From Escherichia coli (GTDB lineage: Bacteria > Pseudomonadota > Gammaproteobacteria > Enterobacterales > Enterobacteriaceae), in the NCBI RefSeq assembly GCF_003790525.1, contig NZ_CP033635.1: a stretch of 64,000 bases of DNA; one strand, written 5' to 3'. The notes under the pieces were generated by a model. It was not told where the DNA came from. It was given only the letters and a program-made list of their open reading frames with translations, and searched no databases. How positions within the stretch are numbered: the first letter of the stretch is position 1; each line of letters begins with the position of its first letter. A program made the translations under genes and the position numbers. This document shows, piece by piece, positions 6,891 through 63,428 of this stretch.

Positions 6891-8093
6891 ATGTTAAAAG
6901 TGGAAATGTTATCCACCGGGGATGAAGTGTTACACGGGCAAATCGTTGACACTAACGCTGCCTGGCTGGCCGATTTTTTCTTTCATCAGGGGTTGCCATT
7001 ATCTCGCCGCAATACGGTGGGGGATAACCTTGATGACTTAGTCACCATTCTTCGCGAACGGAGTCAGCACGCCGATGTGCTGATCGTTAACGGCGGGCTG
7101 GGGCCGACCAGTGATGATTTAAGCGCACTCGCCGCTGCGACAGCAAAAGGTGAAGGCCTGGTGTTGCATGAAGCCTGGCTCAAAGAGATGGAACGCTATT
7201 TCCACGAACGTGGACGAGTAATGGCACCGAGCAACCGTAAACAAGCGGAGCTACCTGCCAGTGCTGAATTTATCAATAACCCGGTAGGCACCGCCTGTGG
7301 TTTTGCCGTGCAGCTCAATCGTTGCCTGATGTTCTTTACCCCCGGCGTACCGTCAGAATTTAAGGTGATGGTCGAGCACGAAATCCTGCCGCGCCTGCGC
7401 GAGCGTTTTTCTTTACCGCAGCCGCCGGTTTGTCTGCGTTTAACTACCTTTGGTCGTTCGGAAAGCGATCTGGCGCAAAGCCTGGACTCCCTGCAACTGC
7501 CGCCGGGCGTAACAATGGGCTATCGCTCCTCAATGCCGATTATCGAACTGAAACTCACCGGACCGGCAAGCGAGGAACAGGCGATGGAAAAACTGTGGCT
7601 GGACGTTAAACGTGTTGCCGGACAGAGCGTGATTTTCGAAGGCACCGAAGGACTGCCCGCGCAGATCAGTCGCGAATTGCAGAGCCGCCAGTTCAGCCTG
7701 ACGTTGAGCGAGCAATTCACCGGTGGTTTATTGGCTTTGCAACTTTCTCGCGCAGGTGCTCCATTGCTGGCGTGTGAAGTGGTTCCTTCACAGGAAGAAA
7801 CCCTGGCGCAAACTGCGCACTGGATTACAGAACGGCGGGCCAACCATTTTGCCGGGCTGGCACTGGCTGTTTCGGGTTTCGAGAACGAGCATCTCAACTT
7901 TGCGCTAGCCACGCCAGACGGCACTTTCGCTCTGCGTGTGCGTTTCAGCACTACGCGCTACAGCCAGGCTATCCGTCAGGAAGTGTGCGCAATGATGGCA
8001 CTGAATATGCTGCGCCGTTGGTTAAACGACCAGGACATCGCCAGTGAGCATGGCTGGATTGAGGTTGTTGAGTCCATGACCTTATCTGTCTGA
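6891..8093 (+). CDS. yfaY: YfaY, CinA-like competence/damage-inducible protein (MoCF-binding domain)
   Basis: 400-aa ORF with CinA N-terminal domain (…ADVLIVNGGLGPTSDD…). Confidence 0.85.
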   Translation: MLKVEMLSTGDEVLHGQIVDTNAAWLADFFFHQGLPLSRRNTVGDNLDDLVTILRERSQHADVLIVNGGLGPTSDDLSALAAATAKGEGLVLHEAWLKEMERYFHERGRVMAPSNRKQAELPASAEFINNPVGTACGFAVQLNRCLMFFTPGVPSEFKVMVEHEILPRLRERFSLPQPPVCLRLTTFGRSESDLAQSLDSLQLPPGVTMGYRSSMPIIELKLTGPASEEQAMEKLWLDVKRVAGQSVIFEGTEGLPAQISRELQSRQFSLTLSEQFTGGLLALQLSRAGAPLLACEVVPSQEETLAQTAHWITERRANHFAGLALAVSGFENEHLNFALATPDGTFALRVRFSTTRYSQAIRQEVCAMMALNMLRRWLNDQDIASEHGWIEVVESMTLSV

Positions 8094-8312: not shown

Positions 8313-9095
8313 ATGTTGGAATCAAGCAAAGTTCCCGCCCTGACACGGGCTATTGATATTCTCAATTTGATTGCCCGCATTGGCCCCTGTAGTGCTGCGA
8401 CGATCATTGACACATTGGGGATCCCTAAAAGCACGGCCTATTTGCTGCTTAATGAACTCAGGCGTCAGCGTTTTCTTAGCCTTGATCACCAGGAAAATTT
8501 TTGTTTGTGGACCAGGCTGGTGGAGCTTTCCGGTCATGCGTTAAGCAAGATGGATCTCCGGGAACTGGCTCGACCGCGTTTGACGCAACTGATGGATACC
8601 ACCGGGCTGTTATGTCACCTGGGGATTATTGATAACGGCAGCGCTTATTACATTTTGAAAGTGGAGTCATCAGCCACTATCAGCGTGCGTTCCCATGAAG
8701 GAAAAAGCCTTTCGCTTTATCGCTCCGGAATAGGTAAATGCCTGCTTGCCTGGCAACCTGCAGCTGTACAGCAAAGTATTATCGAAGGGCTGATCTGGGA
8801 GCAGGCGACACCCACAACGATTACTCATCCACAGCAACTTCACGAAGAACTGGCGCGTATTCGCCGTCAGGGCTGGAGCTATGACAACGGCGAAGATTAC
8901 GCCGATGTCCGTTGTGTCGCTGCGCCGGTTTTTAACGCCAATAACGAGCTTACCGCTGCGATCTCGGTGGTCGGTACCCGCTTACAAATCAATGAAGAAT
9001 ACCGTGATTATCTGGCGGGCAAGGCCATTGCCTGCGCCAGGGATATTTCACGTCTGTTGGGATGGAAAAGTCCCTTTGACTTACAGGCCTCATAA
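8313..9095 (+). CDS. rhmR: RhmR, IclR-family transcriptional regulator of the L-rhamnonate operon
   Basis: 260-aa ORF with IclR-type HTH plus effector domain, immediately upstream of rhmD-rhmT-rhmA. Confidence 0.85.
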
Positions 9096-9109
9096 CAATG
9101 GAGAACAGC

Positions 9110-10315
9110 ATGACCCTACCAAAAATCAAACAGGTTCGCGCCTGGTTTACTGGCGGTGCGACAGCAGAAAAAGGCGCTGGCGGTGGTGATTATCACGACC
9201 AGGGGGCGAATCACTGGATTGACGATCATATTGCCACCCCGATGAGTAAATACCGCGATTACGAGCAGTCACGCCAGTCATTTGGCATTAACGTTCTTGG
9301 CACGTTGATTGTTGAAGTCGAAGCAGAAAACGGCCAGACCGGATTCGCCGTTTCGACAGCCGGTGAAATGGGCTGTTTTATTGTCGAAAAACACCTTAAC
9401 CGTTTCATTGAGGGTAAATGTGTCAGTGATATCAAACTGATCCACGATCAAATGCTCAATGCCACCCTGTATTACTCCGGCTCTGGTGGCCTGGTGATGA
9501 ATACGATTTCCTGTGTCGATCTGGCTCTGTGGGATCTGTTCGGCAAAGTGGTCGGGCTTCCGGTTTATAAACTTTTAGGCGGCGCAGTTCGTGATGAGAT
9601 TCAGTTCTACGCCACAGGTGCGCGTCCGGATCTGGCAAAAGAGATGGGCTTTATCGGTGGCAAAATGCCGACGCACTGGGGGCCACATGATGGCGATGCG
9701 GGGATCCGCAAAGATGCCGCTATGGTCGCGGATATGCGTGAAAAATGCGGTGAGGATTTCTGGTTAATGCTCGACTGCTGGATGAGTCAGGACGTGAACT
9801 ATGCCACCAAACTGGCCCACGCTTGCGCGCCCTATAACCTGAAATGGATCGAAGAGTGCCTGCCGCCACAGCAGTATGAAGGTTATCGCGAACTGAAACG
9901 CAACGCACCAGCGGGGATGATGGTCACCAGCGGTGAGCACCACGGCACATTGCAATCTTTCCGTACGCTTTCAGAAACCGGTATCGACATTATGCAGCCG
10001 GATGTTGGCTGGTGCGGTGGCTTAACCACGCTGGTGGAAATTGCCGCAATCGCCAAATCCAGGGGGCAACTGGTGGTGCCGCACGGTTCGTCTGTTTACT
10101 CCCACCATGCGGTGATCACCTTCACCAATACGCCATTCAGTGAATTCCTGATGACCAGCCCGGATTGTTCAACGATGCGTCCGCAATTTGATCCGATTCT
10201 GCTTAATGAGCCGGTTCCGGTGAATGGTCGTATTCATAAATCAGTGCTTGATAAACCCGGTTTCGGCGTTGAACTCAATCGTGACTGCAATTTGAAACGC
10301 CCCTACAGCCACTAA
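9110..10315 (+). CDS. rhmD: RhmD, L-rhamnonate dehydratase (enolase superfamily)
   Basis: ORF 9098-10315. Start preferred at ATG 9110 ([13 protein letters not shown]…), which has a GGAGA Shine-Dalgarno 5 nt upstream and gives about 401 aa. Confidence 0.85.
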
Positions 10316-32907: not shown

Positions 32908-33606
32908 TTACTGTGTAGATAACGAGAGAATTTTTCGTGCGCGCTCGGTAAATCCACTACTTACGTGATGAGTAATAAAATTACAAACACCTTCAACGTT
33001 ATTATTTTTTAGCATATCTAAAATAGTCGCATGGCCACGATTTGAATTGGTGATATATTCCGTAGTGAAATCCAGTCGATAACGGATAGCAAGTAAACGT
33101 GCGGATATCAATTGGTGTGCCTGAGAGATGTATTTATTATCAGCGTATTTAACAAACACATAATGAAAATCATGATCCAGTTTAAGATAAGCCTGAGTAT
33201 CGCGCTCGGCATTAATTTTTGCTGATTTTGATAGTATACTATTTAGTTCAATGATGACATTGTTTGCATTCTTTTCCATTGCTTCACTAATTGCACCCTG
33301 CTCCAGAATTACTCGCATTTTTATGAGGTCATTAATATCTTTATCTGTTACGGAAAAAACGAATGTTCCGCTGCGTGGAATGATATTGATCAGATTTTCA
33401 TTGTGACTAAGTAAAATAAAAGCTTCACGAATAGGTGTTTTACTTACCGCCAGAATATTCGAAAGTTCATTTTCACTTATCGGTTGCCCAAGACTGAGAT
33501 CGCCATGAATTATCATATCCCTGATTTTTTCTTTGATGACCTGTGTTACGGATTTTGGTATCTCAATTGATATGTGACTTAAGTCACGTTTCGCTTTATC
33601 TCTCAT
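32908..33606 (-). CDS. GntR-family (FadR/FCD subfamily) transcriptional regulator; accessory-island gene
   Basis: 232-aa ORF with N-terminal GntR-type winged HTH (…LSENELSNILAVSKTPIREAF…) and C-terminal all-helical FCD-like domain; codons are AT-rich. Confidence 0.8.
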   Translation of the reverse strand: MRDKAKRDLSHISIEIPKSVTQVIKEKIRDMIIHGDLSLGQPISENELSNILAVSKTPIREAFILLSHNENLINIIPRSGTFVFSVTDKDINDLIKMRVILEQGAISEAMEKNANNVIIELNSILSKSAKINAERDTQAYLKLDHDFHYVFVKYADNKYISQAHQLISARLLAIRYRLDFTTEYITNSNRGHATILDMLKNNNVEGVCNFITHHVSSGFTERARKILSLSTQ

Positions 33607-33670
33607 TCCTTTGCCCCTTATTAAGCTGCTGGTCCATTATATGTAATCATTTTATCAATGAAGGTATCTA

Positions 33671-33753
33671 ATATATCAGATATGACAAAAATGATATATC
33701 TTATTGTTGTAGCTTAGTGTTTCAATCAATGATCAAGCTGATATATCAGATAT
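33671..33753. promoter_or_regulatory. Two copies of a 13-bp operator-like motif in the divergent regulator / transporter promoter region
   Basis: atatatcagatat occurs at 33671-33683 and again at 33741-33753; the core atatc-a-gatat is an inverted repeat. Confidence 0.45.
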
Positions 33754-33843
33754 AACACATCACCTTTTGAACTGGATTATTTTTTACGTAATATCCACTT
33801 CGGGCAGTACTCTTATTCATTGAACCACAAAAGGTGAAACAAA

Positions 33844-35172
33844 ATGAGCAGTCCTCAGAAAGATTTGTATGAAGCCATTTCTATTGTGAAAAGGAAGATT
33901 ATTCCGTTAGCATTTATTCTGTATTTTTTTAACTATATGGATCGTGTTAACATCGGATTTGCCGCTTTACGCATGAATGAATCCCTTGGTATTACACCAG
34001 AGGATTTTGCTAATATATCTTCAATATTTTTTGTGTCCTATTTGATTTTTCAAATTCCGAGCAGTATTGGATTGCAAAAGTTAGGTGCAAGAAAATGGAT
34101 TAGCGCCATTATTGTTGGTTGGGGAACAGTAACAACGTTAATTTTCTTTGCCAAAGACACCCAGCATATATTGCTCGCTCGGGTCTTTTTGGGAATATTT
34201 GAAGCGGGGTTTTTCCCTGGCATGGTTTACTACCTGGCATGTTGGTTCCCGGCGCGTGAACGTGGAAAAGTGAATAGCTTTTTTATGTTATCAATCGCAG
34301 TTGCATCTGTGCTGGCGGCACCAATGTCTGGTTGGATTATTGAACATATGAATACCGGTAACTATGAAGGATGGCGCTGGCTTTTTGCTATTGAAGGCAT
34401 TCCTACGGTGTTATTGGGGGCGCTGACCTTTTATTTACTGCCAGATCGTCCGGAAAAAGCCCGCTGGCTTACACCATCGCAAGTCACCGCATTGGTCGAT
34501 AAACTTAATTCTGATAACGAAAAAGCCGCAGCATTAAATAAAAATACAAATGCATCTTTTCTGTCAATCATTAAAAATCCAGTATTACTACAACTCTCAT
34601 TTGCTTATATGTTTATTCAGGCAGCGGCGTTGGCGGCAAATTACTGGTTACCGGGGTTGGTTAAAGGATTTTCATCGGATTTCACAGATACCGATGTCGG
34701 TTTGATTATGAGTATTCCGTTTATTTTCGCGATGTTCAGTATGCCATTATGGGGATGGCATTCCGATAAAAAGAATGAAAGGAAATGGCATGCCGCACTA
34801 CCGATGTTGGTTGCAGGTTGCGGTTTTTTAATGATCGCACTTGTACCTTCGATGACGCTGCGCATGATGGGATTAACATTATACGGTGTAGGCATTCTCA
34901 GTTATTACGGTCCGTACTGGGCTTTACCCTCAGCTTTACTTTCACCATCAGGCCTGGCAATCAGTATTGCGTTTATTAACTCTTGTTCAAGTTTGGGTGG
35001 TTTTCTGATCAATAAATCACTTGGCTATGTTTCTACACATTATGGAGCCACGGGGATATTTATTGTTGAGGCGATTCTTTGCTTTATCGCCGTAGCTATT
35101 TTGTTATCAATGAAAATTGATAATAAAAAAGATAACGCCCAGAAAGACAATGTTATTTCACATGCTAAATAA
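33844..35172 (+). CDS. MFS transporter of the anion:cation symporter (ACS) family, sugar-acid type (DgoT/RhmT/GudP-like)
   Basis: 442-aa ORF with motifs shared with the RhmT in this window (…DRVNIGFAA…, [11 protein letters not shown]…, WFPxRER). Confidence 0.8.
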   Translation: MSSPQKDLYEAISIVKRKIIPLAFILYFFNYMDRVNIGFAALRMNESLGITPEDFANISSIFFVSYLIFQIPSSIGLQKLGARKWISAIIVGWGTVTTLIFFAKDTQHILLARVFLGIFEAGFFPGMVYYLACWFPARERGKVNSFFMLSIAVASVLAAPMSGWIIEHMNTGNYEGWRWLFAIEGIPTVLLGALTFYLLPDRPEKARWLTPSQVTALVDKLNSDNEKAAALNKNTNASFLSIIKNPVLLQLSFAYMFIQAAALAANYWLPGLVKGFSSDFTDTDVGLIMSIPFIFAMFSMPLWGWHSDKKNERKWHAALPMLVAGCGFLMIALVPSMTLRMMGLTLYGVGILSYYGPYWALPSALLSPSGLAISIAFINSCSSLGGFLINKSLGYVSTHYGATGIFIVEAILCFIAVAILLSMKIDNKKDNAQKDNVISHAK

Positions 35173-35184
35173 ATGAGGTTATTT

Positions 35185-36387
35185 ATGAAGATTACATCTG
35201 TAGAAATTTTTGACTGCGAACTCAAAAAAAGAGATCAAACTATGGCCTCTTATAATCCAGTACTTATTCGGGTTAATACCGATGCTGGAATAAGTGGTGT
35301 TGGCGAAGTAGGATTAGCCTATGGTGCAGGTGCAAAATCTGGTGTTGGTATTATCAGAGATTTAGCCCCTCTCATCATTGGTGAAGATCCGTTGAACATT
35401 GAGAAGATTTGGGAATTCCTCTTCAGGAAAACATTTTGGGGAATGGGCGGTGGTAATGTTTTTTACGCAGGTATGAGCGCTATTGATATTGCCTTATGGG
35501 ATATTAAAGGTAAATATTTAAACGTGCCGGTTTATCAACTACTGGGGGGAAAGACTAACGATAAATTGAGAACTTACGCCAGTCAGTTACAATTTGGTTG
35601 GGGCGAAAAAAGGCAAATATTAGTAACGCCTGAAGAGTATGCAGAGGCAGCGCGTGCCGCTATTGCAGAAGGTTATAATGCGATAAAAGTTGATCCGCTT
35701 GAAATCGATCTGCATGGCGGCGATTGTGTCTTTCAGAACAAAAATAGAAATTACTCTGGCTTATTACTGGCCGAACAATTAAAAATGGGCGAGGCAAGAA
35801 TTGCCGCTATGCGTGAAGCAATGGGCGACGATGCTGATATTATTGTAGAGATTCATTCTCTTCTAGGAACAAATTCAGCGATCCAGTTTGCCAAAGCAAT
35901 AGAGAAATATCGTATTTTTCTCTATGAGGAGCCAATTCATCCATTAAATTCGGATAATATGCAGAAAGTTGCCCGTTCAACATCGATTCCGATAGCAACA
36001 GGTGAGCGTTCTTATACTCGCTGGGGATATCGTGATTTACTGGAAAAACAATCAATTGCGGTAGCTCAACCTGATTTGTGTCTTTGTGGTGGCATTACAG
36101 AGGGAAAGAAAATTTGTGATTATGCCAATATATATGACACAACCGTTCAGGTACATGTTTGTGGCGGGCCTGTTTCAACAGTAGCGGCGCTGCATATGGA
36201 AACTGCAATACCTAACTTTATTATTCATGAACATCATACCAATGCGATGAAAGCATGTATTCGGGAACTTTGTACTTACGATTATCAACCCGAGAATGGC
36301 TATTATGTCGCGCCAGAGTTGCCTGGGCTTGGTCAGGAATTAAACGATGAAATCGTACAACAATATCTTGCCTATGTGATCAAATAA
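35185..36387 (+). CDS. Enolase-superfamily sugar-acid dehydratase, GalD / mandelate-racemase subgroup (D-galactonate-dehydratase-like)
   Basis: ORF 35173-36387. Start preferred at ATG 35185 (MKITSVEIFD…) with a GAGG Shine-Dalgarno at 35175-35178. Has the KxK motif (WDIKGK), the metal-ligand region and the QPDLxxxGGITE motif typical of DgoD-like dehydratases. Confidence 0.8.
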   Translation: MKITSVEIFDCELKKRDQTMASYNPVLIRVNTDAGISGVGEVGLAYGAGAKSGVGIIRDLAPLIIGEDPLNIEKIWEFLFRKTFWGMGGGNVFYAGMSAIDIALWDIKGKYLNVPVYQLLGGKTNDKLRTYASQLQFGWGEKRQILVTPEEYAEAARAAIAEGYNAIKVDPLEIDLHGGDCVFQNKNRNYSGLLLAEQLKMGEARIAAMREAMGDDADIIVEIHSLLGTNSAIQFAKAIEKYRIFLYEEPIHPLNSDNMQKVARSTSIPIATGERSYTRWGYRDLLEKQSIAVAQPDLCLCGGITEGKKICDYANIYDTTVQVHVCGGPVSTVAALHMETAIPNFIIHEHHTNAMKACIRELCTYDYQPENGYYVAPELPGLGQELNDEIVQQYLAYVIK

Positions 36388-36403
36388 CGGCGATTTATAT
36401 ACT

Positions 36404-39662: not shown

Positions 39663-46509
<6,847 letters not shown>

Positions 46510-49013: not shown

Positions 49014-50198
49014 TTAATTCAACCGTTCAATCACCATCGCAATTCCCTGGCCGCCACCAATGCACAGTGTTGCCAGCCCCAGCGTTTTATCGCGTGCCTG
49101 CATGGCATGTAATAGTGTGACCAGAATACGAGCACCACTGGCACCGATAGGATGCCCGAGCGCGATGGCCCCGCCGTTGACATTCACTTTCTCAGAATCA
49201 AAGCCCAGGGTTTTCCCAACGGCAAGGAACTGTGCGGCAAATGCTTCATTAGCCTCAATGAGATCAATATCCGCCAGTTGCAGCCCCGCCAGTTGTAACG
49301 CTTTTTGCGTGGCAGGTACTGGTCCCATACCCATCAATGCGGGGGGCACGCCACCGCTGGCATAACTTTTAATGCGAGCCAGGGGGGTAAGGCCTGCTGC
49401 CAGCGCCGCAGATTCTTCCATAATCACCAGAGCGGCAGCACCGTCATTAATACCAGACGCGTTCCCGGCGGTGACTGTTCCTGCTTTATCGAAGGCCGGG
49501 CGCAATGCACCTAACGCTTCAGCCGTTGAATTCGCTTTCGGGAATTCGTCTTGACTGAAGACGAAGGTTTTCTTCCGGGTGACAATATTTACCGGGACGA
49601 TTTCGGCTGTAAAAGCACCGGACTCAATTGCGGCTGCCGCTTTACGCTGTGAATGTAGCGCCAGTTCATCCTGCATTTCTCGGGTAATTCCGTACTCTTT
49701 GGCCACGTTCTCGGCGGTAATCCCCATATGATAACCATGAGTGGCGCACATCAGACCATCGCGCAGGATTACGTCATAAACCTGTCCGTCTCCAAGACGA
49801 TAACCAGAGCGTGCTTTTGCATCGAGTAAGTAGGGCGCTAAACTCATATTTTCCATACCCCCCGCCACAATGCTTTGCGCCTGACCTGCCTGAATTGCCT
49901 GGGCGGCAAGCGCCACACTTTTAAGACCCGAACCACACACTTTATTGACCGTGAATCCGCACACCGTTTCTGCCAGCCCGCTTTTTAACAGTGCCTGACG
50001 CGCCGGATTTTGCCCCAGCCCGGCTTGCAACACGTTACCCATAATCACTTCATCAATGTGTAGTGAATCGATTTTTGCACGTTCAATGGCGGCTTTAATT
50101 ACTGTCGCCCCCAGGTCGATGGCGCTGGTGGAAGCGAGTGAACCGTTAAAACTACCGATAGCAGTACGTACCGCACTGACGATGACACAATTTTTCAT
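49014..50198 (-). CDS. atoB: AtoB, acetyl-CoA acetyltransferase (thiolase II)
   Basis: 394-aa ORF, thiolase family ([21 protein letters not shown]…). Confidence 0.95.
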
Positions 50199-50228
50199 TT
50201 TATATTCCTTCTGTCTGTAGGGTTGCCG

Positions 50229-51551
50229 TCAGAACAGCGTTAAACCAATGACGAAAATGACGCCGGAGAAGAGCAGGGCAGTGATGCAATAGCCCATGAT
50301 GTCGCGGACACCGAGTCCGGCGATTGCCAGTGCTGGCAGCGCCCAGAACGGTTGTGCCATGTTCATCCATTGCTCGCCGTAGGCGATCGCCATTACCGAT
50401 TTACCGAGATCAGCGCCCAGCGCCTGGGCTGCGGGTATCACGAAAGGTCCCTGAATAACCCAGTGACCGCCGCCAGACGGAACGGCGAAGTTAATCAGTG
50501 CAGAACTAAAAAAGGTCATTACCGGGAAGGTGTCTTTGTTCGCAACATTGATGAAGAATTCGGTAATGAGTCCGCCCAGACCGGAATGCTCCATCATCAG
50601 TTGGATCCCAGCGTAGAAGGGGAATTGCACCAGAATACCGGCAGTACTCCGTGCTGCCGCGCTGATAGCACGCATATAAGCCATTGGCGTTTTATGTAGC
50701 AGCAGACCCGCAATCATAAACATCAGGTTGACGGTATTGATGGTGATGTTGAAGCCATGTTCGCTGAAGTACATCGCAAGGTAAGCGATACCGAGTGCGC
50801 CGATGATCAACGTCAGAATGCGGCTTTCTTCCAGTCGCTCGGATGGTGGGGCATCTTTCGGTAGCTGCTTTTGGAAATCAGCCTCTTCCATGAGTAGTTT
50901 CGGATCGATACTCACCACGTCAGACGGTTTTGGCATCATCATGCGGGTGATAAATGGCATCACCACAATCAACGCCACAGTGATGAAAATGTTAAAACCA
51001 CTGAACAGAGTATCGCCCACCGGGATCAGCCCGGCGATATGCTCAACCGGGTTGCCCGGTGTTGCAGCCAACAGAGGCATTGAGCCAGAGAAACCGCCAC
51101 CCCAGGTGAGAAAACTAATGTAGGCGCAGGCAATGAGCAACGGATAATCAGAACCGGGTACTCGGCGGGCGACTTCACGGGCAAACATTGCGCCGACAAC
51201 CAAACCAAATCCCCAGTTGATGACACAAGCGACTGAACCGAAGAAAGTAACCAGCATGACGCCCTGTACGGGCGTCTTTGCGGCGGAGGCGGCAGTACGC
51301 AGCAAACTTTTTACCGGAGCAGAGCTGGCAAGGGCATGACCGGTAACGATGATAAGCGCCATCTGCATACCAAACGCCAGCAAGTTCCAGAAACCGTCAC
51401 CCCACATTTTCACCATGCTGATCGGCGTTTGTGGTGTTAACCAAAGCGCGATCACGAATGTTAGCAATGTCAGCAACATGGCAAAGATCAGTGGATCGGG
51501 AAGCCACCGGCTGACAAAACGCGTCATAAAACGCGATATGCGACCAATCAT
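50229..51551 (-). CDS. atoE: AtoE, short-chain fatty acid transporter
   Basis: 440-aa polytopic membrane ORF between atoA and atoB. Confidence 0.9.
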   Translation of the reverse strand: MIGRISRFMTRFVSRWLPDPLIFAMLLTLLTFVIALWLTPQTPISMVKMWGDGFWNLLAFGMQMALIIVTGHALASSAPVKSLLRTAASAAKTPVQGVMLVTFFGSVACVINWGFGLVVGAMFAREVARRVPGSDYPLLIACAYISFLTWGGGFSGSMPLLAATPGNPVEHIAGLIPVGDTLFSGFNIFITVALIVVMPFITRMMMPKPSDVVSIDPKLLMEEADFQKQLPKDAPPSERLEESRILTLIIGALGIAYLAMYFSEHGFNITINTVNLMFMIAGLLLHKTPMAYMRAISAAARSTAGILVQFPFYAGIQLMMEHSGLGGLITEFFINVANKDTFPVMTFFSSALINFAVPSGGGHWVIQGPFVIPAAQALGADLGKSVMAIAYGEQWMNMAQPFWALPALAIAGLGVRDIMGYCITALLFSGVIFVIGLTLF

Positions 51552-52198
51552 AAATCACCCCGTTGCGTATTCAGATCGGCAGCTACTTCAAACCGAGCTT
51601 CTGTTTTGGCACGCACGGTGGCTAAATCACACCCGTCGGCAATTTCGGTGAGCCACATTTTGCCGTCAATAAAACGAAAGACAGCCAGTTCAGTAACCAG
51701 CATATGCACCGCATGTTGCGCAGTGAGAGGCATGGTGCAGCGGCGCAAAATTTTTGCTGAACCATCTTTGGCGCAATGTTCCATGGCGATGATCACTTTG
51801 CGCGACCCGGTCACCAGATCCATCGCGCCACCCATACCGGGCACCATTTTCCCAGGCACTACCCAGTTCGCGAGGTTTGCTTCTTCGTCTACTTGCAAAC
51901 CGCCGAGCACGCAGGCATCAATATGACCGCCACGGATTAGCGCAAATGACATGGCGCTATCAAACATGGCTGCACCGGGTAAAACACCGCACGGTTGTCC
52001 GCCAGCGTTCACCAGATCTGGATGCGCTGTCGTGACCGGGCCTAAACCGAGGAAGCCGTTTTCCGATTGCAGAGTGATATGAATACCCTCCGGTAAATAA
52101 TTGGCGACCATTGTGGGTAAACCGATCCCTAAGTTAACGATGTCACCATCACGAAGCTCTTGCGCCACACGGCGCGCAATACGTTGTTTCGCATCCAT
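51548..52198 (-). CDS. atoA: AtoA, acetate CoA-transferase beta subunit
   Basis: 216-aa ORF, CoA-transferase family I subunit B. Confidence 0.95.
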   Translation of the reverse strand: MDAKQRIARRVAQELRDGDIVNLGIGLPTMVANYLPEGIHITLQSENGFLGLGPVTTAHPDLVNAGGQPCGVLPGAAMFDSAMSFALIRGGHIDACVLGGLQVDEEANLANWVVPGKMVPGMGGAMDLVTGSRKVIIAMEHCAKDGSAKILRRCTMPLTAQHAVHMLVTELAVFRFIDGKMWLTEIADGCDLATVRAKTEARFEVAADLNTQRGDL

Positions 52199-52860
52199 TA
52201 TTTGCTCTCCTGTGAAACGATGATGTGGTCGATAACGGCACCAGGGGTGACAATATGGTCAGGTTGCAGCTCGCCGGTTTCGACCAGTTCATCTGGCTCT
52301 ACCAGCGTGATATCAGCCGCAAGGGCTATCAGGGGGTTAAAGTTGCGGGCGCTAAGGTGATAGGTCAGGTTGCCAAGTGTGTCGCAACGATGAGCGCGAA
52401 TTAGCGCCAGGTCGGCGCGCAGCGGGCGTTCGAGCAGCCAGGTTTTACCGTCGAGTGTCAGTGTCTGTTTGCCTTCCTCTACGACGGTACCGACACCTGT
52501 TGGGGTGAGAAAACCACCAAGTCCAGCTCCACCACAGCGAATTTGCTCGATTAGCGTACCTTGCGGCACCAGAACGACGTCCATCTCACCAGAAATCATG
52601 CGCCGACCTGTTTCCGGGTTGGTACCGATATGTGAAGCAATCACTTTGCGGACTCGACCATTGACGATGAGCGGACCGATGCCGGTATCAACAAACGCGG
52701 TATCATTGGCTATCAATGTCAGGTCGCGAACACCAGATTCCAGTAATACTTCAACCAGGCGGGATGGAGTGCCAATCCCCATAAATCCGCCCACCATGAT
52801 GGTCATGCCGTCACGAAAGAAGCCGGTGGCGTCTTGTAATGTCATCAATTTTGTTTTCAT
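52198..52860 (-). CDS. atoD: AtoD, acetate CoA-transferase alpha subunit
   Basis: 220-aa ORF, CoA-transferase family I subunit A. Confidence 0.95.
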
Positions 52861-52905
52861 TTTTTATCCCTCTTGCATACACCGTTGTGGGTACAGTCAG
52901 GGAAT

Positions 52906-52921
52906 AGCAAGGGGAGTGCCA
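52906..52921 (-). promoter_or_regulatory. Sigma-54 (-24/-12) promoter of atoDAEB
   Basis: Minus strand reads TGGCAC-tcccc-TTGCT, matching TGGCAC-N5-TTGCW, about 45-60 bp upstream of the atoD start. Confidence 0.65.
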
Positions 52922-53003
52922 GAATGAGATTATTGGGGGTTGTTATTTAACTAATTGAATAGAAAAGGATAAATTAGATGGGGGTTTATAAGGAGAATGA
53001 GCG

Positions 53004-53044
53004 GCTATGCAGAAAATTGCGCACTGTGCAAATTTCTGCATAGC
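53004..53044. promoter_or_regulatory. AtoC enhancer-binding site (imperfect 20-bp inverted repeat)
   Basis: gctatgcagaaaattgcgcac / gtgcaaatttctgcatagc palindrome about 85-125 bp upstream of the sigma-54 promoter. Confidence 0.7.
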
Positions 53045-53055
53045 AAGTTTTGGCG

Positions 53056-54441
53056 TTATACATCCGCCGGATCGATACCGTATTCCTGGAGTTTATACAT
53101 CAATGCACGGCGACTGATGCCCAGCATTAACGCAGTGCGGGTTCGGTTTCCTTCTTGTTGTTCCAGCACTTCCATAATGATGCGTTTTTCGACGCGTTTA
53201 ATTTCCTCTTTTAAATTACGCTCACCGACAGGGGCTGTTTTTGCCTCACCAGCATTACAGACTGGCTGACGAATCTGCGGCGGAAGATCCTCAGAGAAAA
53301 TGATCGGGCCTGAGTTCATCACGACGGCGCGTTCAATGACGTTGGAAAGCTCTCGAATATTACCCGGCCATGACCAGGCGGTAAGCAGCGACATTGCCAT
53401 CGGATCGATGTCGATAATATCGCGCTGATTCTCACTACTGAATTTTTGCAAAAAGTGATTAGCTAACAGGGAAATATCTTCCCGGCGATCGCGCAGAGGC
53501 GGTAGTATTAAATGAATAACGTTAAGGCGATAAAAGAGATCTTCACGGAAGGTGCCTTCTTTCACCATTGCCTGCAAGTCGCGGTTGGTGGCAGCAATGA
53601 TGCGGATATCAACTTTTATGGTCTGATGACCGCCAATCCGTTCAAATTCCCGTTCCTGCAGAATGCGTAGTAATTTGGCTTGCAGTACCAGCGGCATTTC
53701 GCCAATTTCGTCGAGGAGCAGAGTACCTTCGTTGGCACGTTCAAATAATCCCTGACGTAAGGTTTGTGCACCAGTAAATGCGCCTTTTTCATGACCAAAC
53801 AGTTCACTTTCGAGCAACGATTCCGGCAGTGCCGCGCAGTTGACTTTAATGAACGGCCCCTTTGCCCTCCGCGAATTGTAGTGAATCGCTCTGGCAATCA
53901 ACTCTTTCCCGGTGCCGCTTTCACCGCTAATCAAGACGCTGGCCTGAGAAAGGGCAATTTTGGCGGTGTCTTTGCAGATGTCCATCATCGCCGGGCTGTT
54001 GGTGAGAATGTGCCCCCATTGCCAGCTGGTGCTCAGTGCCTGGTGCAGATGACGGATCTCTTTTTTCATTGACTGGAGTTGTAAAGTGCGCTGAACGATT
54101 AAATTCAACTCATCGAGATCAAACGGTTTGATAACATAGTCGAAGGCTCCGCAGCGTAGTGCTTCGACGGCGGTTTCCACTTCAGCATAGGCCGTCATCA
54201 GAATAACGGGTGTCCGGGTCTCATGGCTGCGCATCTCCTTGAGTGCCTTGATGCCGTCCATCTCTGGCATGCGGATATCCATCAACACCACGTCAGGGTG
54301 AATATCGGCAAACAGGTGTAATGCTGTGCGCCCGTTGTTCGCACAATGTGTTTCGAATCCTTGTAGTGCAAAAGCGGTGCTCAGCATACGGCGAACATTA
54401 TCTTCATCATCCACAATAAGGATGCGATTAATAGCAGTCAT
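53056..54441 (-). CDS. atoC: AtoC, NtrC-family sigma-54-dependent response regulator
   Basis: 461-aa ORF with receiver domain, AAA+ sigma-54 activation domain (GESGTGKE, GAFTGA) and C-terminal HTH. Confidence 0.95.
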   Translation of the reverse strand: MTAINRILIVDDEDNVRRMLSTAFALQGFETHCANNGRTALHLFADIHPDVVLMDIRMPEMDGIKALKEMRSHETRTPVILMTAYAEVETAVEALRCGAFDYVIKPFDLDELNLIVQRTLQLQSMKKEIRHLHQALSTSWQWGHILTNSPAMMDICKDTAKIALSQASVLISGESGTGKELIARAIHYNSRRAKGPFIKVNCAALPESLLESELFGHEKGAFTGAQTLRQGLFERANEGTLLLDEIGEMPLVLQAKLLRILQEREFERIGGHQTIKVDIRIIAATNRDLQAMVKEGTFREDLFYRLNVIHLILPPLRDRREDISLLANHFLQKFSSENQRDIIDIDPMAMSLLTAWSWPGNIRELSNVIERAVVMNSGPIIFSEDLPPQIRQPVCNAGEAKTAPVGERNLKEEIKRVEKRIIMEVLEQQEGNRTRTALMLGISRRALMYKLQEYGIDPADV

Positions 54442-56264
54442 ACAGTCTGATTTCCCTGCGGGTTGATCGGTAAAATAAGCGTGAAGGTTGCGCCGTAGCC
54501 CGGCAAACTGGCGACGCGAATATCACCCTGATGGGCATTAATGATGCGTTGACTTAACGCCAGACCAAGCCCGGTTCCTGAGGCTTTGGTGGTGAAAAAG
54601 GGATCGAAGATCTTTTTTTGCAGCGAGAGATCAATGCCACAGCCGTTGTCCTCTATCGAAATGGCCTGTTGTGAGTCGCTGTATTGCCAGGTTCGAATGC
54701 GAATTTTCCCTCGTGCACTGATAGCCTGGACGGCATTGATCAGGATATTCAGTAGTACCTGTTTGAGCAGTTCACGATCGGCGTTAATCGGGCTTAATTC
54801 ATTATCCAGTTCGCTTATGAAGTCGACCCGCGCTTGTACGCCGGCGGTTTGTACCAGTACCAGAGTTTCTTCAACCAATGCATTGAGGCTGACTTGTTGC
54901 CATTGACTGTGGCGTGGACGTGAAAATTCGAGCAATTGCTGAATAACTTTGTTAATTGAATCAATTTCTTTGAGTACTACGGACAGATATTCCTGATGTA
55001 TTAGGTCGCTGGTTTGTTGGCGCAAGATCTGTACATAACCACGAATAGCCGTTAGCGGATTACGTACTTCATGCGCCACGCCAGCCATCAGCTCACCCAG
55101 TGTGGCGAGGCGTTCTGCTTGCGCCATGCGGCGCTGGGTTTCTTTGCGGGCAGTTAAATCAGAGAAAATCACCAAAGCACCTATCATTTCACCGTGCGTG
55201 TTATGAATACGACTGGTCGTGACACTGAGTTCAATGGTGCGGTCACGGCCTGGAAAACTGATCTCCAGCGCCACATGTTCGGTGCCATGTTCCAGCGTAT
55301 CCAGTACTGGACTGTAGAACTGAGTATTGTCGAACAACATGGAGTAAGGCTGCCCTACCAGTTCATGACGTTGATAGCCAGTGATGACTTCTGCTGCCGG
55401 GTTCATGGTGGTTACATCACCCTGGCGGTCAATGGCAATGACGCCATCGGCAGCGTTTTCAATAATCAGATCGTTAAGTGTCCGCGTTTCACGCAGTGCC
55501 TGGGCGAGGTTGTTAACACTCTGACTGATTTGCCCCATTTCACCGGGCAATTGTGGTAATCGAGTGGGAATATTTTGTGCCAGAGTCGAGAGGCCATCGG
55601 TGATGATATCTATATTGGCGCTCAGGCGACGGGAGAAAAGGACAATCAACAGCAGGCTTATCAGCAAACCGGCGGTGAGCACAATGATAATCCTCACATC
55701 CATTTTCCAGGCCTGGCGGCGAATATCTTCGGTTAATTCATTGGCCCAGATATAGCCGAGGATTTCACCATTACGCTCAATGGGAATCATTGAATTCAAA
55801 ATATCGCCGCGCACCTGCCTGCCTGAATAAACCAAAGGGGTATTTGTACGCATGACTTCGCGACCAGGGTGATCTGCGGCAATGGTAACGCCGACATTAT
55901 TCTGATATAGCGCTGAAGGCGCGTAGGTGATTATCGCATCCAGCGTTTTGTTGTAATAACCAGCGCCGATGCCAGGGAAGGCGTGAGTGATATTTTCGGT
56001 AATGGGGGCAAGTTCTGCATTTAATGCGCGGATACGCTCCTCACGTGGTAAGTCGATGTAGAGATCATAGCGATCGCCTAGTGCCTGATTAAGCAGGTTG
56101 ACCACGGCAGAAAGTTTTTTCTCTTTTTCAGATAAGACTGCTGAACGTCCTTCCGTTTCTACGATATAACCAATAGTAAGCGTTGGGACAATGACCATCA
56201 GGATTGCCATCAGGATCATTTGATTGCGTAAGCGGCGTGGATAAATCCACTTCATATAATGCAT
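54438..56264 (-). CDS. atoS: AtoS, sensor histidine kinase
   Basis: ORF 54438-56276 with start trimmed to MHYMKWIYPRRLRN, about 608 aa; PAS, HisKA (HEVRNP) and HATPase domains. Confidence 0.9.
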   Translation of the reverse strand: MHYMKWIYPRRLRNQMILMAILMVIVPTLTIGYIVETEGRSAVLSEKEKKLSAVVNLLNQALGDRYDLYIDLPREERIRALNAELAPITENITHAFPGIGAGYYNKTLDAIITYAPSALYQNNVGVTIAADHPGREVMRTNTPLVYSGRQVRGDILNSMIPIERNGEILGYIWANELTEDIRRQAWKMDVRIIIVLTAGLLISLLLIVLFSRRLSANIDIITDGLSTLAQNIPTRLPQLPGEMGQISQSVNNLAQALRETRTLNDLIIENAADGVIAIDRQGDVTTMNPAAEVITGYQRHELVGQPYSMLFDNTQFYSPVLDTLEHGTEHVALEISFPGRDRTIELSVTTSRIHNTHGEMIGALVIFSDLTARKETQRRMAQAERLATLGELMAGVAHEVRNPLTAIRGYVQILRQQTSDLIHQEYLSVVLKEIDSINKVIQQLLEFSRPRHSQWQQVSLNALVEETLVLVQTAGVQARVDFISELDNELSPINADRELLKQVLLNILINAVQAISARGKIRIRTWQYSDSQQAISIEDNGCGIDLSLQKKIFDPFFTTKASGTGLGLALSQRIINAHQGDIRVASLPGYGATFTLILPINPQGNQTV

Positions 56265-56430: not shown

Positions 56431-59280
56431 TTGAAATACCTTGCTTCTTTTCGTACAACCCTGAAAGCCTCGCGCTACATGTTCAGAGCATTGGCGTTAG
56501 TGCTCTGGCTGTTGATTGCTTTTTCATCCGTTTTTTACATCGTTAATGCGTTACATCAGCGAGAATCGGAAATTCGTCAGGAATTTAATCTGAGTTCCGA
56601 TCAGGCTCAGCGCTTTATTCAACGCACCTCTGATGTGATGAAAGAGCTGAAGTACATCGCCGAAAATCGCTTATCGGCAGAAAACGGTGTGCTTTCCCCG
56701 CGTGGACGAGAAACGCAGACGGATGTGCCTGCGTTTGAACCGCTGTTTGCTGACTCTGATTGTTCCGCAATGAGTAACACCTGGCGAGGTTCTCTGGAGT
56801 CATTGGCGTGGTTTATGCGCTACTGGCGCGATAATTTTTCTGCGGCTTACGATCTCAACCGGGTATTTTTAATCGGCAGCGATAACCTCTGCATGGCCAA
56901 TTTCGGTCTGCGTGATATGCCAGTGGAACGCGATACCGCGCTAAAAGCTTTGCATGAACGCATTAATAAATATCGAAATGCACCACAAGATGATAGTGGC
57001 AGTAACCTCTACTGGATCAGCGAAGGTCCGCGCCCTGGCGTCGGGTATTTTTACGCGTTGACGCCAGTTTATCTGGCGAACCGGTTGCAGGCGCTTTTGG
57101 GTGTCGAGCAGACCATCCGGATGGAGAACTTTTTCTTGCCTGGTACGTTGCCGATGGGGGTTACCATTCTTGATGAAAATGGTCATACCCTGATTTCGCT
57201 TACCGGACCAGAAAGCAAAATTAAGGGCGATCCTCGCTGGATGCAGGAACGCTCCTGGTTTGGCTATACGGAAGGGTTCCGGGAGCTGGTGCTGAAGAAA
57301 AATCTGCCACCCTCATCGCTAAGCATCGTGTATTCGGTGCCGGTTGATAAGGTGCTGGAACGCATTCGCATGTTGATCCTTAACGCAATTTTGCTGAATG
57401 TGCTTGCCGGAGCTGCATTGTTTACTCTCGCGCGGATGTACGAGCGACGTATTTTCATTCCGGCGGAAAGCGACGCCCTGCGACTGGAAGAACATGAGCA
57501 GTTTAATCGCAAGATTGTCGCCTCCGCGCCAGTGGGTATCTGCATTTTGCGTACCGCTGATGGCGTCAATATTTTAAGTAACGAACTGGCGCATACCTAT
57601 CTCAATATGCTTACGCATGAGGATCGCCAACGGCTGACACAAATTATCTGTGGGCAGCAGGTCAATTTTGTTGATGTCCTGACCAGCAACAATACCAATC
57701 TGCAAATCAGCTTCGTCCATTCGCGCTATCGTAATGAAAACGTGGCCATTTGTGTGCTGGTGGATGTTTCTTCGCGCGTGAAGATGGAAGAGTCGTTGCA
57801 GGAGATGGCACAAGCAGCGGAACAGGCGAGTCAGTCAAAATCGATGTTCCTTGCCACCGTCAGTCATGAGCTGCGAACGCCGCTGTATGGCATTATCGGT
57901 AACCTGGATCTATTGCAAACCAAAGAGTTGCCGAAAGGCGTCGATCGTCTGGTGACGGCAATGAACAACTCTTCCAGCCTGTTGTTGAAAATTATCAGCG
58001 ATATTCTCGATTTCTCGAAGATTGAATCAGAACAGTTGAAGATCGAACCGCGTGAGTTTTCACCGCGTGAAGTGATGAACCACATCACCGCCAACTATTT
58101 ACCGCTGGTGGTACGCAAGCAGTTAGGCTTGTACTGCTTTATTGAACCGGATGTGCCAGTGGCCTTAAATGGCGACCCGATGCGTTTACAGCAGGTCATC
58201 TCCAACCTGTTGAGTAACGCCATAAAATTCACCGATACCGGCTGTATAGTTTTGCAAGTTCGCGCTGATGGCGATTATCTCTCTATCCGTGTTCGCGATA
58301 CCGGCGTGGGGATTCCGGCGAAAGAAGTCGTGCGCTTGTTTGATCCCTTCTTCCAGGTCGGAACGGGCGTACAGCGAAACTTCCAGGGGACCGGTCTGGG
58401 TCTGGCGATTTGTGAAAAACTGATCAGCATGATGGACGGCGACATCTCGGTAGATTCAGAACCGGGAATGGGCAGCCAGTTTACCGTGCGTATTCCGTTG
58501 TACGGCGCTCAGTACCCGCAGAAAAAAGGCGTGGAAGGGTTGAGTGGTAAACGCTGCTGGCTGGCGGTCCGCAATGCGTCGCTCTGTCAGTTCCTGGAAA
58601 CCAGTTTGCAGCGCAGCGGCATCGTCGTTACAACATACGAAGGGCAGGAACCGACTCCCGAAGATGTGTTAATTACTGACGAGGTAGTGAGTAAAAAATG
58701 GCAGGGTAGAGCGGTAGTGACCTTCTGTCGTCGCCATATTGGTATTCCGCTGGAGAAAGCGCCAGGGGAGTGGGTACACAGTGTGGCGGCCCCGCATGAG
58801 CTACCGGCATTGTTGGCGCGTATTTATTTGATCGAGATGGAGAGCGATGATCCTGCTAACGCTCTGCCGTCGACGGACAAAGCGGTCAGCGATAACGACG
58901 ATATGATGATTCTGGTCGTGGATGATCATCCGATTAACCGGCGTCTTCTGGCAGATCAGTTGGGATCGTTGGGCTATCAATGTAAAACCGCGAATGATGG
59001 CGTCGATGCGCTTAATGTACTTAGCAAGAATCATATTGATATCGTGCTTAGCGACGTCAACATGCCAAATATGGATGGTTACCGCTTGACGCAACGCATT
59101 CGTCAGTTGGGACTGACGTTGCCGGTAATCGGAGTAACTGCTAATGCGTTGGCTGAAGAGAAGCAGCGGTGTCTGGAGTCCGGTATGGACAGCTGCCTGT
59201 CGAAGCCGGTAACGCTGGATGTGATAAAACAGACGCTGACGGTATATGCCGAGAGGGTCAGGAAATCGCGGGAATCGTAG
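56431..59280 (+). CDS. rcsC: RcsC, hybrid sensor histidine kinase of the Rcs phosphorelay
   Basis: 949-aa ORF with HisKA (SHELRTP), HATPase and C-terminal receiver domain. Confidence 0.95.
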   Translation: MKYLASFRTTLKASRYMFRALALVLWLLIAFSSVFYIVNALHQRESEIRQEFNLSSDQAQRFIQRTSDVMKELKYIAENRLSAENGVLSPRGRETQTDVPAFEPLFADSDCSAMSNTWRGSLESLAWFMRYWRDNFSAAYDLNRVFLIGSDNLCMANFGLRDMPVERDTALKALHERINKYRNAPQDDSGSNLYWISEGPRPGVGYFYALTPVYLANRLQALLGVEQTIRMENFFLPGTLPMGVTILDENGHTLISLTGPESKIKGDPRWMQERSWFGYTEGFRELVLKKNLPPSSLSIVYSVPVDKVLERIRMLILNAILLNVLAGAALFTLARMYERRIFIPAESDALRLEEHEQFNRKIVASAPVGICILRTADGVNILSNELAHTYLNMLTHEDRQRLTQIICGQQVNFVDVLTSNNTNLQISFVHSRYRNENVAICVLVDVSSRVKMEESLQEMAQAAEQASQSKSMFLATVSHELRTPLYGIIGNLDLLQTKELPKGVDRLVTAMNNSSSLLLKIISDILDFSKIESEQLKIEPREFSPREVMNHITANYLPLVVRKQLGLYCFIEPDVPVALNGDPMRLQQVISNLLSNAIKFTDTGCIVLQVRADGDYLSIRVRDTGVGIPAKEVVRLFDPFFQVGTGVQRNFQGTGLGLAICEKLISMMDGDISVDSEPGMGSQFTVRIPLYGAQYPQKKGVEGLSGKRCWLAVRNASLCQFLETSLQRSGIVVTTYEGQEPTPEDVLITDEVVSKKWQGRAVVTFCRRHIGIPLEKAPGEWVHSVAAPHELPALLARIYLIEMESDDPANALPSTDKAVSDNDDMMILVVDDHPINRRLLADQLGSLGYQCKTANDGVDALNVLSKNHIDIVLSDVNMPNMDGYRLTQRIRQLGLTLPVIGVTANALAEEKQRCLESGMDSCLSKPVTLDVIKQTLTVYAERVRKSRES

Positions 59281-59365
59281 GACGGATAAGGCGTTTACGC
59301 CGCATCTGGCATTCAGTGCAAATGCCAGATAAGACACTAACGCGTCTTATCTGGCCTACAGGTGA
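59281..59365. repeat. REP elements between convergent rcsC and rcsB
   Basis: ggacggataaggcgtttacgccgcatctggca … gccagataagacac…gcgtcttatctggcctac REP motifs. Confidence 0.75.
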
Positions 59366-63016: not shown

Positions 63017-63109
63017 AAAAAAAACCGGATGCGAGGCATCCGGTTGAAATAGGGGTAAACAGACATTCAGAAATGAATGACGGTAATAAATAAAGTTAAT
63101 GATGATAGC
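63017..63109 (-). ncRNA. micF: MicF antisense sRNA (regulator of ompF)
   Basis: Minus strand reads gctatcatcattaactttatttattaccgtcattcatttctgaatgtctgtttacccctatttcaaccggatgcctcgcatccggtttttttt, which is the MicF sequence including its terminator hairpin and U-tract; divergent from ompC. Confidence 0.9.
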
Positions 63110-63428
63110 GGGAGATATTCTAGTTGCGAGTGAAGGTTTTGTTTTGACATTCAGTGCTGTCAAATACTTAAGAATAAGTTATTGATTTTAACCTTGAATT
63201 ATTATTGCTTGATGTTAGGTGCTTATTTCGCCATTCCGCAATAATCTTAAAAAGTTCCCTTGCATTTACATTTTGAAACATCTATAGCGATAAATGAAAC
63301 ATCTTAAAAGTTTTAGTATCATATTCGTGTTGGATTATTCTGCATTTTTGGGGAGAATGGACCTGCCGACTGATTAATGAGGGTTAATCAGTATGCAGTG
63401 GCATAAAAAAGCAAATAAAGGCATATAA

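Follow-up and report, generated by a model that had tools for sequence, protein, structure and literature searches.

The atoC-atoD intergenic region of an Escherichia coli genome: control elements identical in sequence to the K-12 AtoC enhancer and sigma-54 promoter

The short intergenic region between atoC and atoD raises the question of how transcription of the atoDAEB operon is controlled in the Escherichia coli strain considered here, and whether this control deviates in any way from the one characterised in K-12. The region was analysed as part of a window of 64,000 nucleotides, i.e. the whole stretch of DNA under study, to which all positions given below refer. The answer to which we assign a probability of roughly 95% is acetoacetate-responsive control of atoDAEB by way of a classical enhancer-dependent sigma-54 promoter. 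As such, the control region is an already known and ordinary one, the elements of which are identical in sequence to the characterised K-12 version; it is of little import beyond annotation and holds no discovery. What it does indicate is that the strain carries an apparently functional AtoSC-atoDAEB module for short-chain fatty acids, equipped with the canonical K-12 control elements.

The atoSC-atoDAEB locus in the window

The end of atoC at position 53056 and the start of atoD at 52860, both on the minus strand, delimit an intergenic spacer of 195 bp (52861-53055), which is the length given for it in the preliminary description of this DNA and also the length found in K-12 MG1655. A 501-bp query (52700-53200) returned matches of 100% identity in strain SMS-3-5 and further strains, in which the flanking genes are annotated as atoC and atoD. 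The order of the ato genes is that of K-12 and SMS-3-5, and the proteins AtoS, AtoC, AtoD, AtoA, AtoE and AtoB are all full length, free of internal stops and 99-100% identical to their K-12 counterparts. The genes and the translation signal of the operon are as follows.

54438-56264, minus strand: atoS, sensor histidine kinase of 608 aa (open reading frame; Pfam HAMP, PAS, HisKA and HATPase_c)
53056-54441, minus strand: atoC, sigma-54 enhancer-binding response regulator of 461 aa (Pfam domains; annotated as atoC in identical genomes)
52868-52872, minus strand: Shine-Dalgarno-like GAGGG, read off the sequence, 7 nt before the atoD ATG and without variation in the lineage alignment
52198-52860, minus strand: atoD (open reading frame and Pfam; 218/220 residues as in K-12)
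51548-52198, minus strand: atoA (open reading frame and Pfam; 216/216 residues as in K-12)
50229-51551, minus strand: atoE (open reading frame and Pfam; 439/440 residues as in K-12)
49014-50198, minus strand: atoB (open reading frame and Pfam; 390/394 residues as in K-12)

Across the atoDAEB operon (49014-52860, minus strand), two CoA_trans domains, SCFA_trans and Thiolase_N/C were recognised by Pfam. AtoC displays the domains Response_reg, Sigma54_activat, AAA_lid_14 and HTH_8, with the GAFTGA motif at residue 220 and aspartate D55 being present; it combines a receiver, a sigma-54 interaction module (GAFTGA) and an HTH domain, as is looked for in a cognate activator. Compared with K-12, 459 of its 461 residues are identical, the exceptions being T instead of A at residue 119 and A instead of V at residue 400, and AtoS carries four substitutions (604 of 608 residues identical).

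Enhancer palindrome, sigma-54 promoter and intervening DNA

Within the 195 bp, four features bear on transcription, listed here in the order in which they precede atoD.

53004-53044, strandless: 41-bp palindrome (inverted repeat, centre base 53024), matching the AtoC enhancer
52948-52960, minus strand: candidate IHF-like core ATTCAATTAGTTA, from a pattern scan (12/13 match to WATCAANNNNTTR)
52906-52922, minus strand: putative sigma-54 promoter CTGGCACTCCCCTTGCT, with GG at 52920-52919 and GC at 52908-52907
52895-52898, minus strand: expected transcription start, from spacing

The palindrome is composed of a distal arm at 53025-53044 (GCTATGCAGAAATTTGCACA, minus strand) and a proximal arm at 53004-53023 (GCTATGCAGAAAATTGCGCA, plus strand), each of 20 nt, which are separated by 1 nt and complementary at 18 of 20 positions (90%). 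It thus lies where an imperfect palindrome of 41 bp had been described before. When the 195-bp spacer was shuffled 1000 times, the best complementarity of 20-nt arms reached 11.2 on average and 15 at most, and no second palindrome of such kind at 17/20 or better was detected in the 64-kb window. Likewise, a search of the window for the half-site GCTATGCAGAAATTTGCACA with up to 3 mismatches returned the two palindrome arms only, at an expectation of 0.01 matches. According to Pilalis (2011; PMC3118216), the experimentally verified AtoC site upstream of atoDAEB is an inverted palindrome made up of two 20-bp sites, which governs acetoacetate inducibility as well as sigma-54-dependent expression of the operon and is bound by AtoC in vivo (ChIP); ChIP and a footprint are cited there for AtoC binding in K-12. 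In Table 5 of that paper, GCTATGCAGAAATTTGCACA (+) is placed at -184..-165 and GCTATGCAGAAAATTGCGCA (-) at -163..-144 from the atoD start. Counted from the ATG at 52860, exactly these positions are taken by the arms in the window (53044-53025 and 53023-53004), so that the comparison with published AtoC sites, proposed in the preliminary description, yields agreement in letters and positions for both arms. The expression 'two identical' sites in PMC3118216 is loose wording, because its own Table 5 carries the same two differences. These matches support the assignment of the palindrome as the published AtoC enhancer, AtoC binding being known from the identical K-12 sequence.

Further downstream, TGGCACTCCCCTTGCT at 52906-52921 on the minus strand represents a perfect match to TGGCAC-N5-TTGCT, with the GG and GC doublets 10 bp apart, at the very place where a -24/-12 element had been proposed. 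No other place in the window matches TGGCAC-N5-TTGCW exactly, the expectation per 64 kb being 0.14; matches with one mismatch occur in the window at chance frequency. For scoring, a sigma-54 position weight matrix was trained on 41 other intergenic ChIP-seq motifs (PMC4591121, Table 1), the atoD site being left out. With 14.4 bits, the atoD site ranks best of the 128,000 positions on both strands of the 64-kb window, slightly under the median of the training sites (15.9; range 9.0-21.4); the matrix scoring suggested earlier hence agrees with the consensus search. The identical 17-mer (52906-52922) is found in K-12 as ChIP-seq site OS21, listed by Bonocora (2015; PMC4591121, Table 1) as CTGGCACTCCCCTTGCT with gene atoD and distance 35; the same table marks OS21 as a promoter with experimental confirmation in EcoCyc, and the ChIP-seq signal obtained for it in K-12 was modest (FAT 5). 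Moreover, a gSELEX peak of RpoN holoenzyme between atoC and atoD was reported by Shimada (2021; PMC8743547). Taken together with the sequence identity, these reports support the view that the -24/-12 element is the site bound by sigma-54 in vivo in K-12. A scan of the atoC-atoD region for sigma-70-like promoters found none.

Palindrome and promoter follow each other in the order and orientation of an enhancer upstream of a sigma-54 promoter, as had been described: the palindrome is followed by 82 bp, the -24/-12 element, another 45-46 bp and the atoD ATG. Canonical spacing would place the predicted +1 at 52895, 35 nt before the ATG, which agrees with the 'distance 35' for atoD in Table 1 of PMC4591121. 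With this predicted start, GG falls at -25/-24, GC at -13/-12 and the palindrome at -149 to -109, centred at -129. The footprint on the AtoC palindrome by Matta et al. in 2007 is reportedly numbered -146 to -107; this numbering would presumably put the atoD start at 52897-52898, 2-3 nt off the canonical position. From the palindrome centre to the -24 GG doublet, the distance is 104.5 bp, corresponding to 9.95 helical turns, so that both would be presented on the same side of the double helix. The site hence combines dyad symmetry with a placement (edge 82 bp, centre 104.5 bp) inside the roughly 80-150 bp upstream of -24/-12 that are usual for an enhancer.

Enhancer and promoter flank the IHF-like core, which is absent from the preliminary description; the DNA around it, the middle part of the spacer, is rich in A+T (67-80%). 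At least one such match arises in 24% of shuffles, and the match alone is therefore not significant; in 11 lineages, none of its specified positions varies, the two variable columns falling on N positions. IHF is said to be required at the atoDAEB promoter, a finding ascribed to Matta et al. in 2007. Position 52948-52960 would be a candidate for the IHF site. The same spacer contains an 8-nt exact direct repeat, CTCATTCT (minus strand), with copies 73 bp apart at 52921-52928, just upstream of the -24 element, and at 52994-53001, just downstream of the palindrome. Short direct repeats of this sort (D1-D5, including CTCATTCT) were rejected as a signal, with about 0.3 such 8-mer pairs expected in 195 bp; the copy adjoining the palindrome is not conserved among lineages, and the repeat is probably a product of chance.

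If these elements work as their counterparts in K-12, sigma-54 RNA polymerase would occupy TGGCAC-N5-TTGCT (52906-52921, minus strand) as a closed complex until acetoacetate is sensed by AtoS and AtoC becomes phosphorylated. AtoC~P would then assemble on the 41-bp palindrome, the centre of which (53024) precedes the expected start by about 129 bp, while at the IHF-like core (52948-52960) IHF would probably introduce a bend into the A+T-rich spacer. Such a bend could enable the AAA+ ring of AtoC to touch sigma-54 via the GAFTGA loop, whereupon ATP hydrolysis would lead to promoter opening and transcription of atoDAEB. That the region functions in this way in the window strain is what we infer from its sequence, and none of the observations speaks against this explanation.

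In its general design, the ato system resembles the textbook NtrC/glnAp2 family. Like NtrC, AtoC is a response-regulator bEBP with receiver, AAA+ (GAFTGA) and Fis-type HTH domains, and like NtrC-family promoters, the ato promoter features a dyad site about 100-150 bp upstream of a -24/-12 promoter that is activated by DNA looping. In contrast to the several shorter NtrC sites, however, the ato enhancer is a single long palindrome of 2 x 20 bp. Looping is presumably assisted by IHF at the candidate site, as at nifH or Pu and unlike glnAp2, and the signal is acetoacetate, received via AtoS. Another short-chain fatty-acid catabolic operon with a sigma-54 promoter is prpBCDE (PrpR, IHF), the -24/-12 element of which, GTGGCACACCCCTTGCT, is very similar to atoD CTGGCACTCCCCTTGCT (PMC4591121, Table 1). 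It differs from ato in that its activator PrpR lacks a receiver domain and is divergently transcribed, and in having another enhancer sequence.

Conservation and occurrence among E. coli genomes

The closest known system is the K-12 atoDAEB promoter under control of AtoSC, with which the window shares an identical palindrome, -24/-12 17-mer and IHF-like core as well as spacer length and gene order. Between both, 11 of the 195 intergenic positions differ. Palindrome, IHF-like core and -24/-12 element are unaffected; one difference concerns the 5' leader (52902), the other ten the spacers or the bases directly behind the atoC stop codon, and no functional difference can be pointed to. Variation was further assessed in an alignment of 11 E. 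coli lineages, sampled over the identity range and including the divergent strain E69, with the following numbers of variable columns.

Palindrome: 1 of 41
IHF-like core: 2 of 13
-24/-12 element: 0 of 16
Leader: 2 of 45
Spacer from palindrome to IHF-like core: 16 of 43
Spacer from IHF-like core to -24: 10 of 26

In these 11 lineages, the three elements thus contain 3 variable columns out of 70, as opposed to 26 out of 69 in the spacers (Fisher p = 7e-7). The lone change in the palindrome stems from E69 and converts a mismatched pair into a matched one, resulting in 19/20 complementary positions. Without E69, palindrome and promoter are invariant, whereas 18 of the 82 positions between them vary. 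Compared with the coding DNA on either side, this enhancer-promoter spacer (52922-53003) is far more variable: identity over the 195 bp amounts to only 90-95% in nearly half of the genomes, and to 95-99% in most of them over the 501 bp that include coding flanks. Inspected by eye, the spacer variants form two haplotype families, a window-like and a K-12-like one, and E69 displays a 1-bp deletion within 52922-53003.

The atoC-atoD junction was found in 3924 of 5426 complete E. coli genomes, with the remaining 1502 (about 28%) giving no match; one copy resides on a plasmid, and some genomes contain the junction in two places. In strain CUVM53 (L082, 2633-2641), about 139 bp, equivalent to window positions 52775-52912, have been lost by natural deletion. 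Palindrome and -24 TGGCAC remain, but the -12 element is gone together with the leader and some 86 nt from the beginning of atoD; the annotation of CUVM53 treats this gene as a partial pseudogene. As the locus is not universal, with about 28% of genomes being without the junction and at least one strain carrying a deletion, the word 'intact' is informative for predicting phenotypes such as growth on acetoacetate or butyrate. For the window strain, the regulatory unit is apparently intact. This earlier claim stands at the sequence level, where the cis elements equal those of K-12 and six full-length proteins are 99-100% identical.

Alternative readings and further observations

One extension of the sigma-54 reading, rather improbable in our estimate, would have the palindrome act both as enhancer and as an element that defines, stabilises or insulates the 3' end of the atoSC mRNA, alongside a fast-evolving looping spacer that tunes promoter output between phylogroups. 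If true, a single sequence would serve the operon downstream as enhancer and, at the same time, stabilise or insulate the regulator transcript from upstream at its 3' end. A main or additional function of the palindrome in RNA, namely as a hairpin with which the atoSC transcript would end and which would serve as a terminator or 3'-end stabiliser, is decidedly unlikely. To be sure, the palindrome begins 11 nt past the atoC stop codon on the transcribed strand, and as RNA it is predicted to form a hairpin of 16 pairs, the minimum free energy of an 81-nt stretch being -24.7 kcal/mol (z = -4.5), as good a value as none of 200 shuffles attained. Such a fold is no independent evidence, however, because any DNA palindrome gives an RNA hairpin. 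The stem is not trailed by a U-run, the next bases being CCGCUCAUUCUCC, and a terminator scan of the minus strand found none at the palindrome; instead of the G+C-rich stem-loop plus U-run of an intrinsic terminator, there is a predicted stable hairpin without T-run. A search of the atoC-atoD region at the Rfam gathering threshold returned nothing. Covariation cannot discriminate between a role in RNA and one in DNA, because the palindrome alignment has just one variable column. The role at the DNA level, on the other hand, has been established by experiment for the identical sequence (PMC3118216).

A very small probability is given to the possibility that the cis elements are intact while the unit is non-functional in the window strain through changes elsewhere. 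Candidate lesions would be the two substitutions in AtoC (residues 119 and 400), those at four residues of AtoS and spacer variants that alter DNA bending, nearly all of the 11 intergenic differences from K-12 being situated in the looping spacer; moreover, natural loss alleles such as the CUVM53 deletion exist. This is countered by complete ato reading frames without internal stops, by catalytic motifs (D55, GAFTGA) that are in place, and by the 100% identity of the window haplotype in many independent isolates. In addition, the spacer has the same length as in K-12 (195 bp in both), so that helical phasing is kept.

That palindrome and sigma-54 motif are nothing but chance consensus matches without regulatory role is next to inconceivable: although one exact sigma-54 consensus match was obtained in 14 of 100 shuffles of the 64-kb window and one-mismatch matches are as frequent as expected by chance, this is excluded by the shuffle statistics (18/20 for the palindrome was never approached, with a maximum of 15), by the conservation pattern, in which palindrome and promoter are nearly invariant across lineages and the DNA between them is variable, and by published experimental binding to both in K-12 (PMC3118216, PMC4591121) for the identical sequence, quite apart from the fact that both motifs share a single short intergenic region, with the gene of a sigma-54 activator on its upstream side and the known target operon of this activator on its downstream side.

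Besides the atoD promoter, the window contains other sigma-54 motifs. One of them, ATGGCACTGAATATGCT at 7995-8011 (plus strand), lies inside a 400-aa open reading frame (6891-8093), about 300 nt upstream of the open reading frame 8313-9095, and is identical to the intragenic ChIP-seq site IS27, located within yfaY and upstream of rhmR (Bonocora 2015; PMC4591121). The second-best matrix score in the window, 13.8 bits, belongs to TTGGCACGTTGATTGTT at 9297-9313 (plus strand), inside the open reading frame 9098-10315; the main text of the ChIP-seq study (PMC4591121) does not contain this motif.

Several further features of the window were noted in passing. An uninterrupted open reading frame of 1539 aa (41890-46509, plus strand) has its counterpart in SMS-3-5 in a gene annotated as belonging to the alpha-2-macroglobulin family; in K-12 MG1655, this gene, yfaS, is present as a pseudogene. 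Between ubiG and gyrA (32908-36400), genes for a GntR-family regulator, an MFS transporter and a mandelate racemase-family enzyme are found, a trio which, to our knowledge, does not occupy the ubiG-gyrA position in K-12. For the GntR gene, the open reading frame of which comprises 232 aa in the window, a frameshift is annotated in SMS-3-5. Rfam matches were obtained for the MicF sRNA at 63017-63110 (minus strand, 116.8 bits) and for the REP-derived naRNA4/CssrE at 59280-59356 (plus strand), which starts at the last base of the rcsC open reading frame (56431-59280).

Finally, the 18 specified bases at the outer ends of the palindrome, ATGCAGAAA-N17-TTTCTGCAT, served as query for a scan of a genome collection. 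This resulted in 79 loci, one of which is from Escherichia (E69) and 78 of which are unrelated hairpins or terminator-like palindromes. The non-Escherichia loci were rejected as orthologous enhancers in other genera, since they are unrelated hairpins, many of them from one Lachnospiraceae repeat family. Members of this dispersed, near-perfect hairpin family, ATGCAGAAAGCCTGCC-NNN-GGCAGGCTTTCTGCAT, were encountered on Lachnospiraceae contigs (L002, L003, L011, L012, L037-L044, L077-L079 and others) because their outer bases match the AtoC palindrome; they are often flanked by ACGATGGTAT, occur in several copies per genome and are unrelated to ato. In Dictyobacter formicarum (L066, 12571-12615), a 45-nt palindrome, CAGTGATGCAGAAAATTGTGCAACGCACAATTTTCTGCATCACTG, is perfect save for the centre base, and the likeness to the AtoC site extends to its inner sequence.
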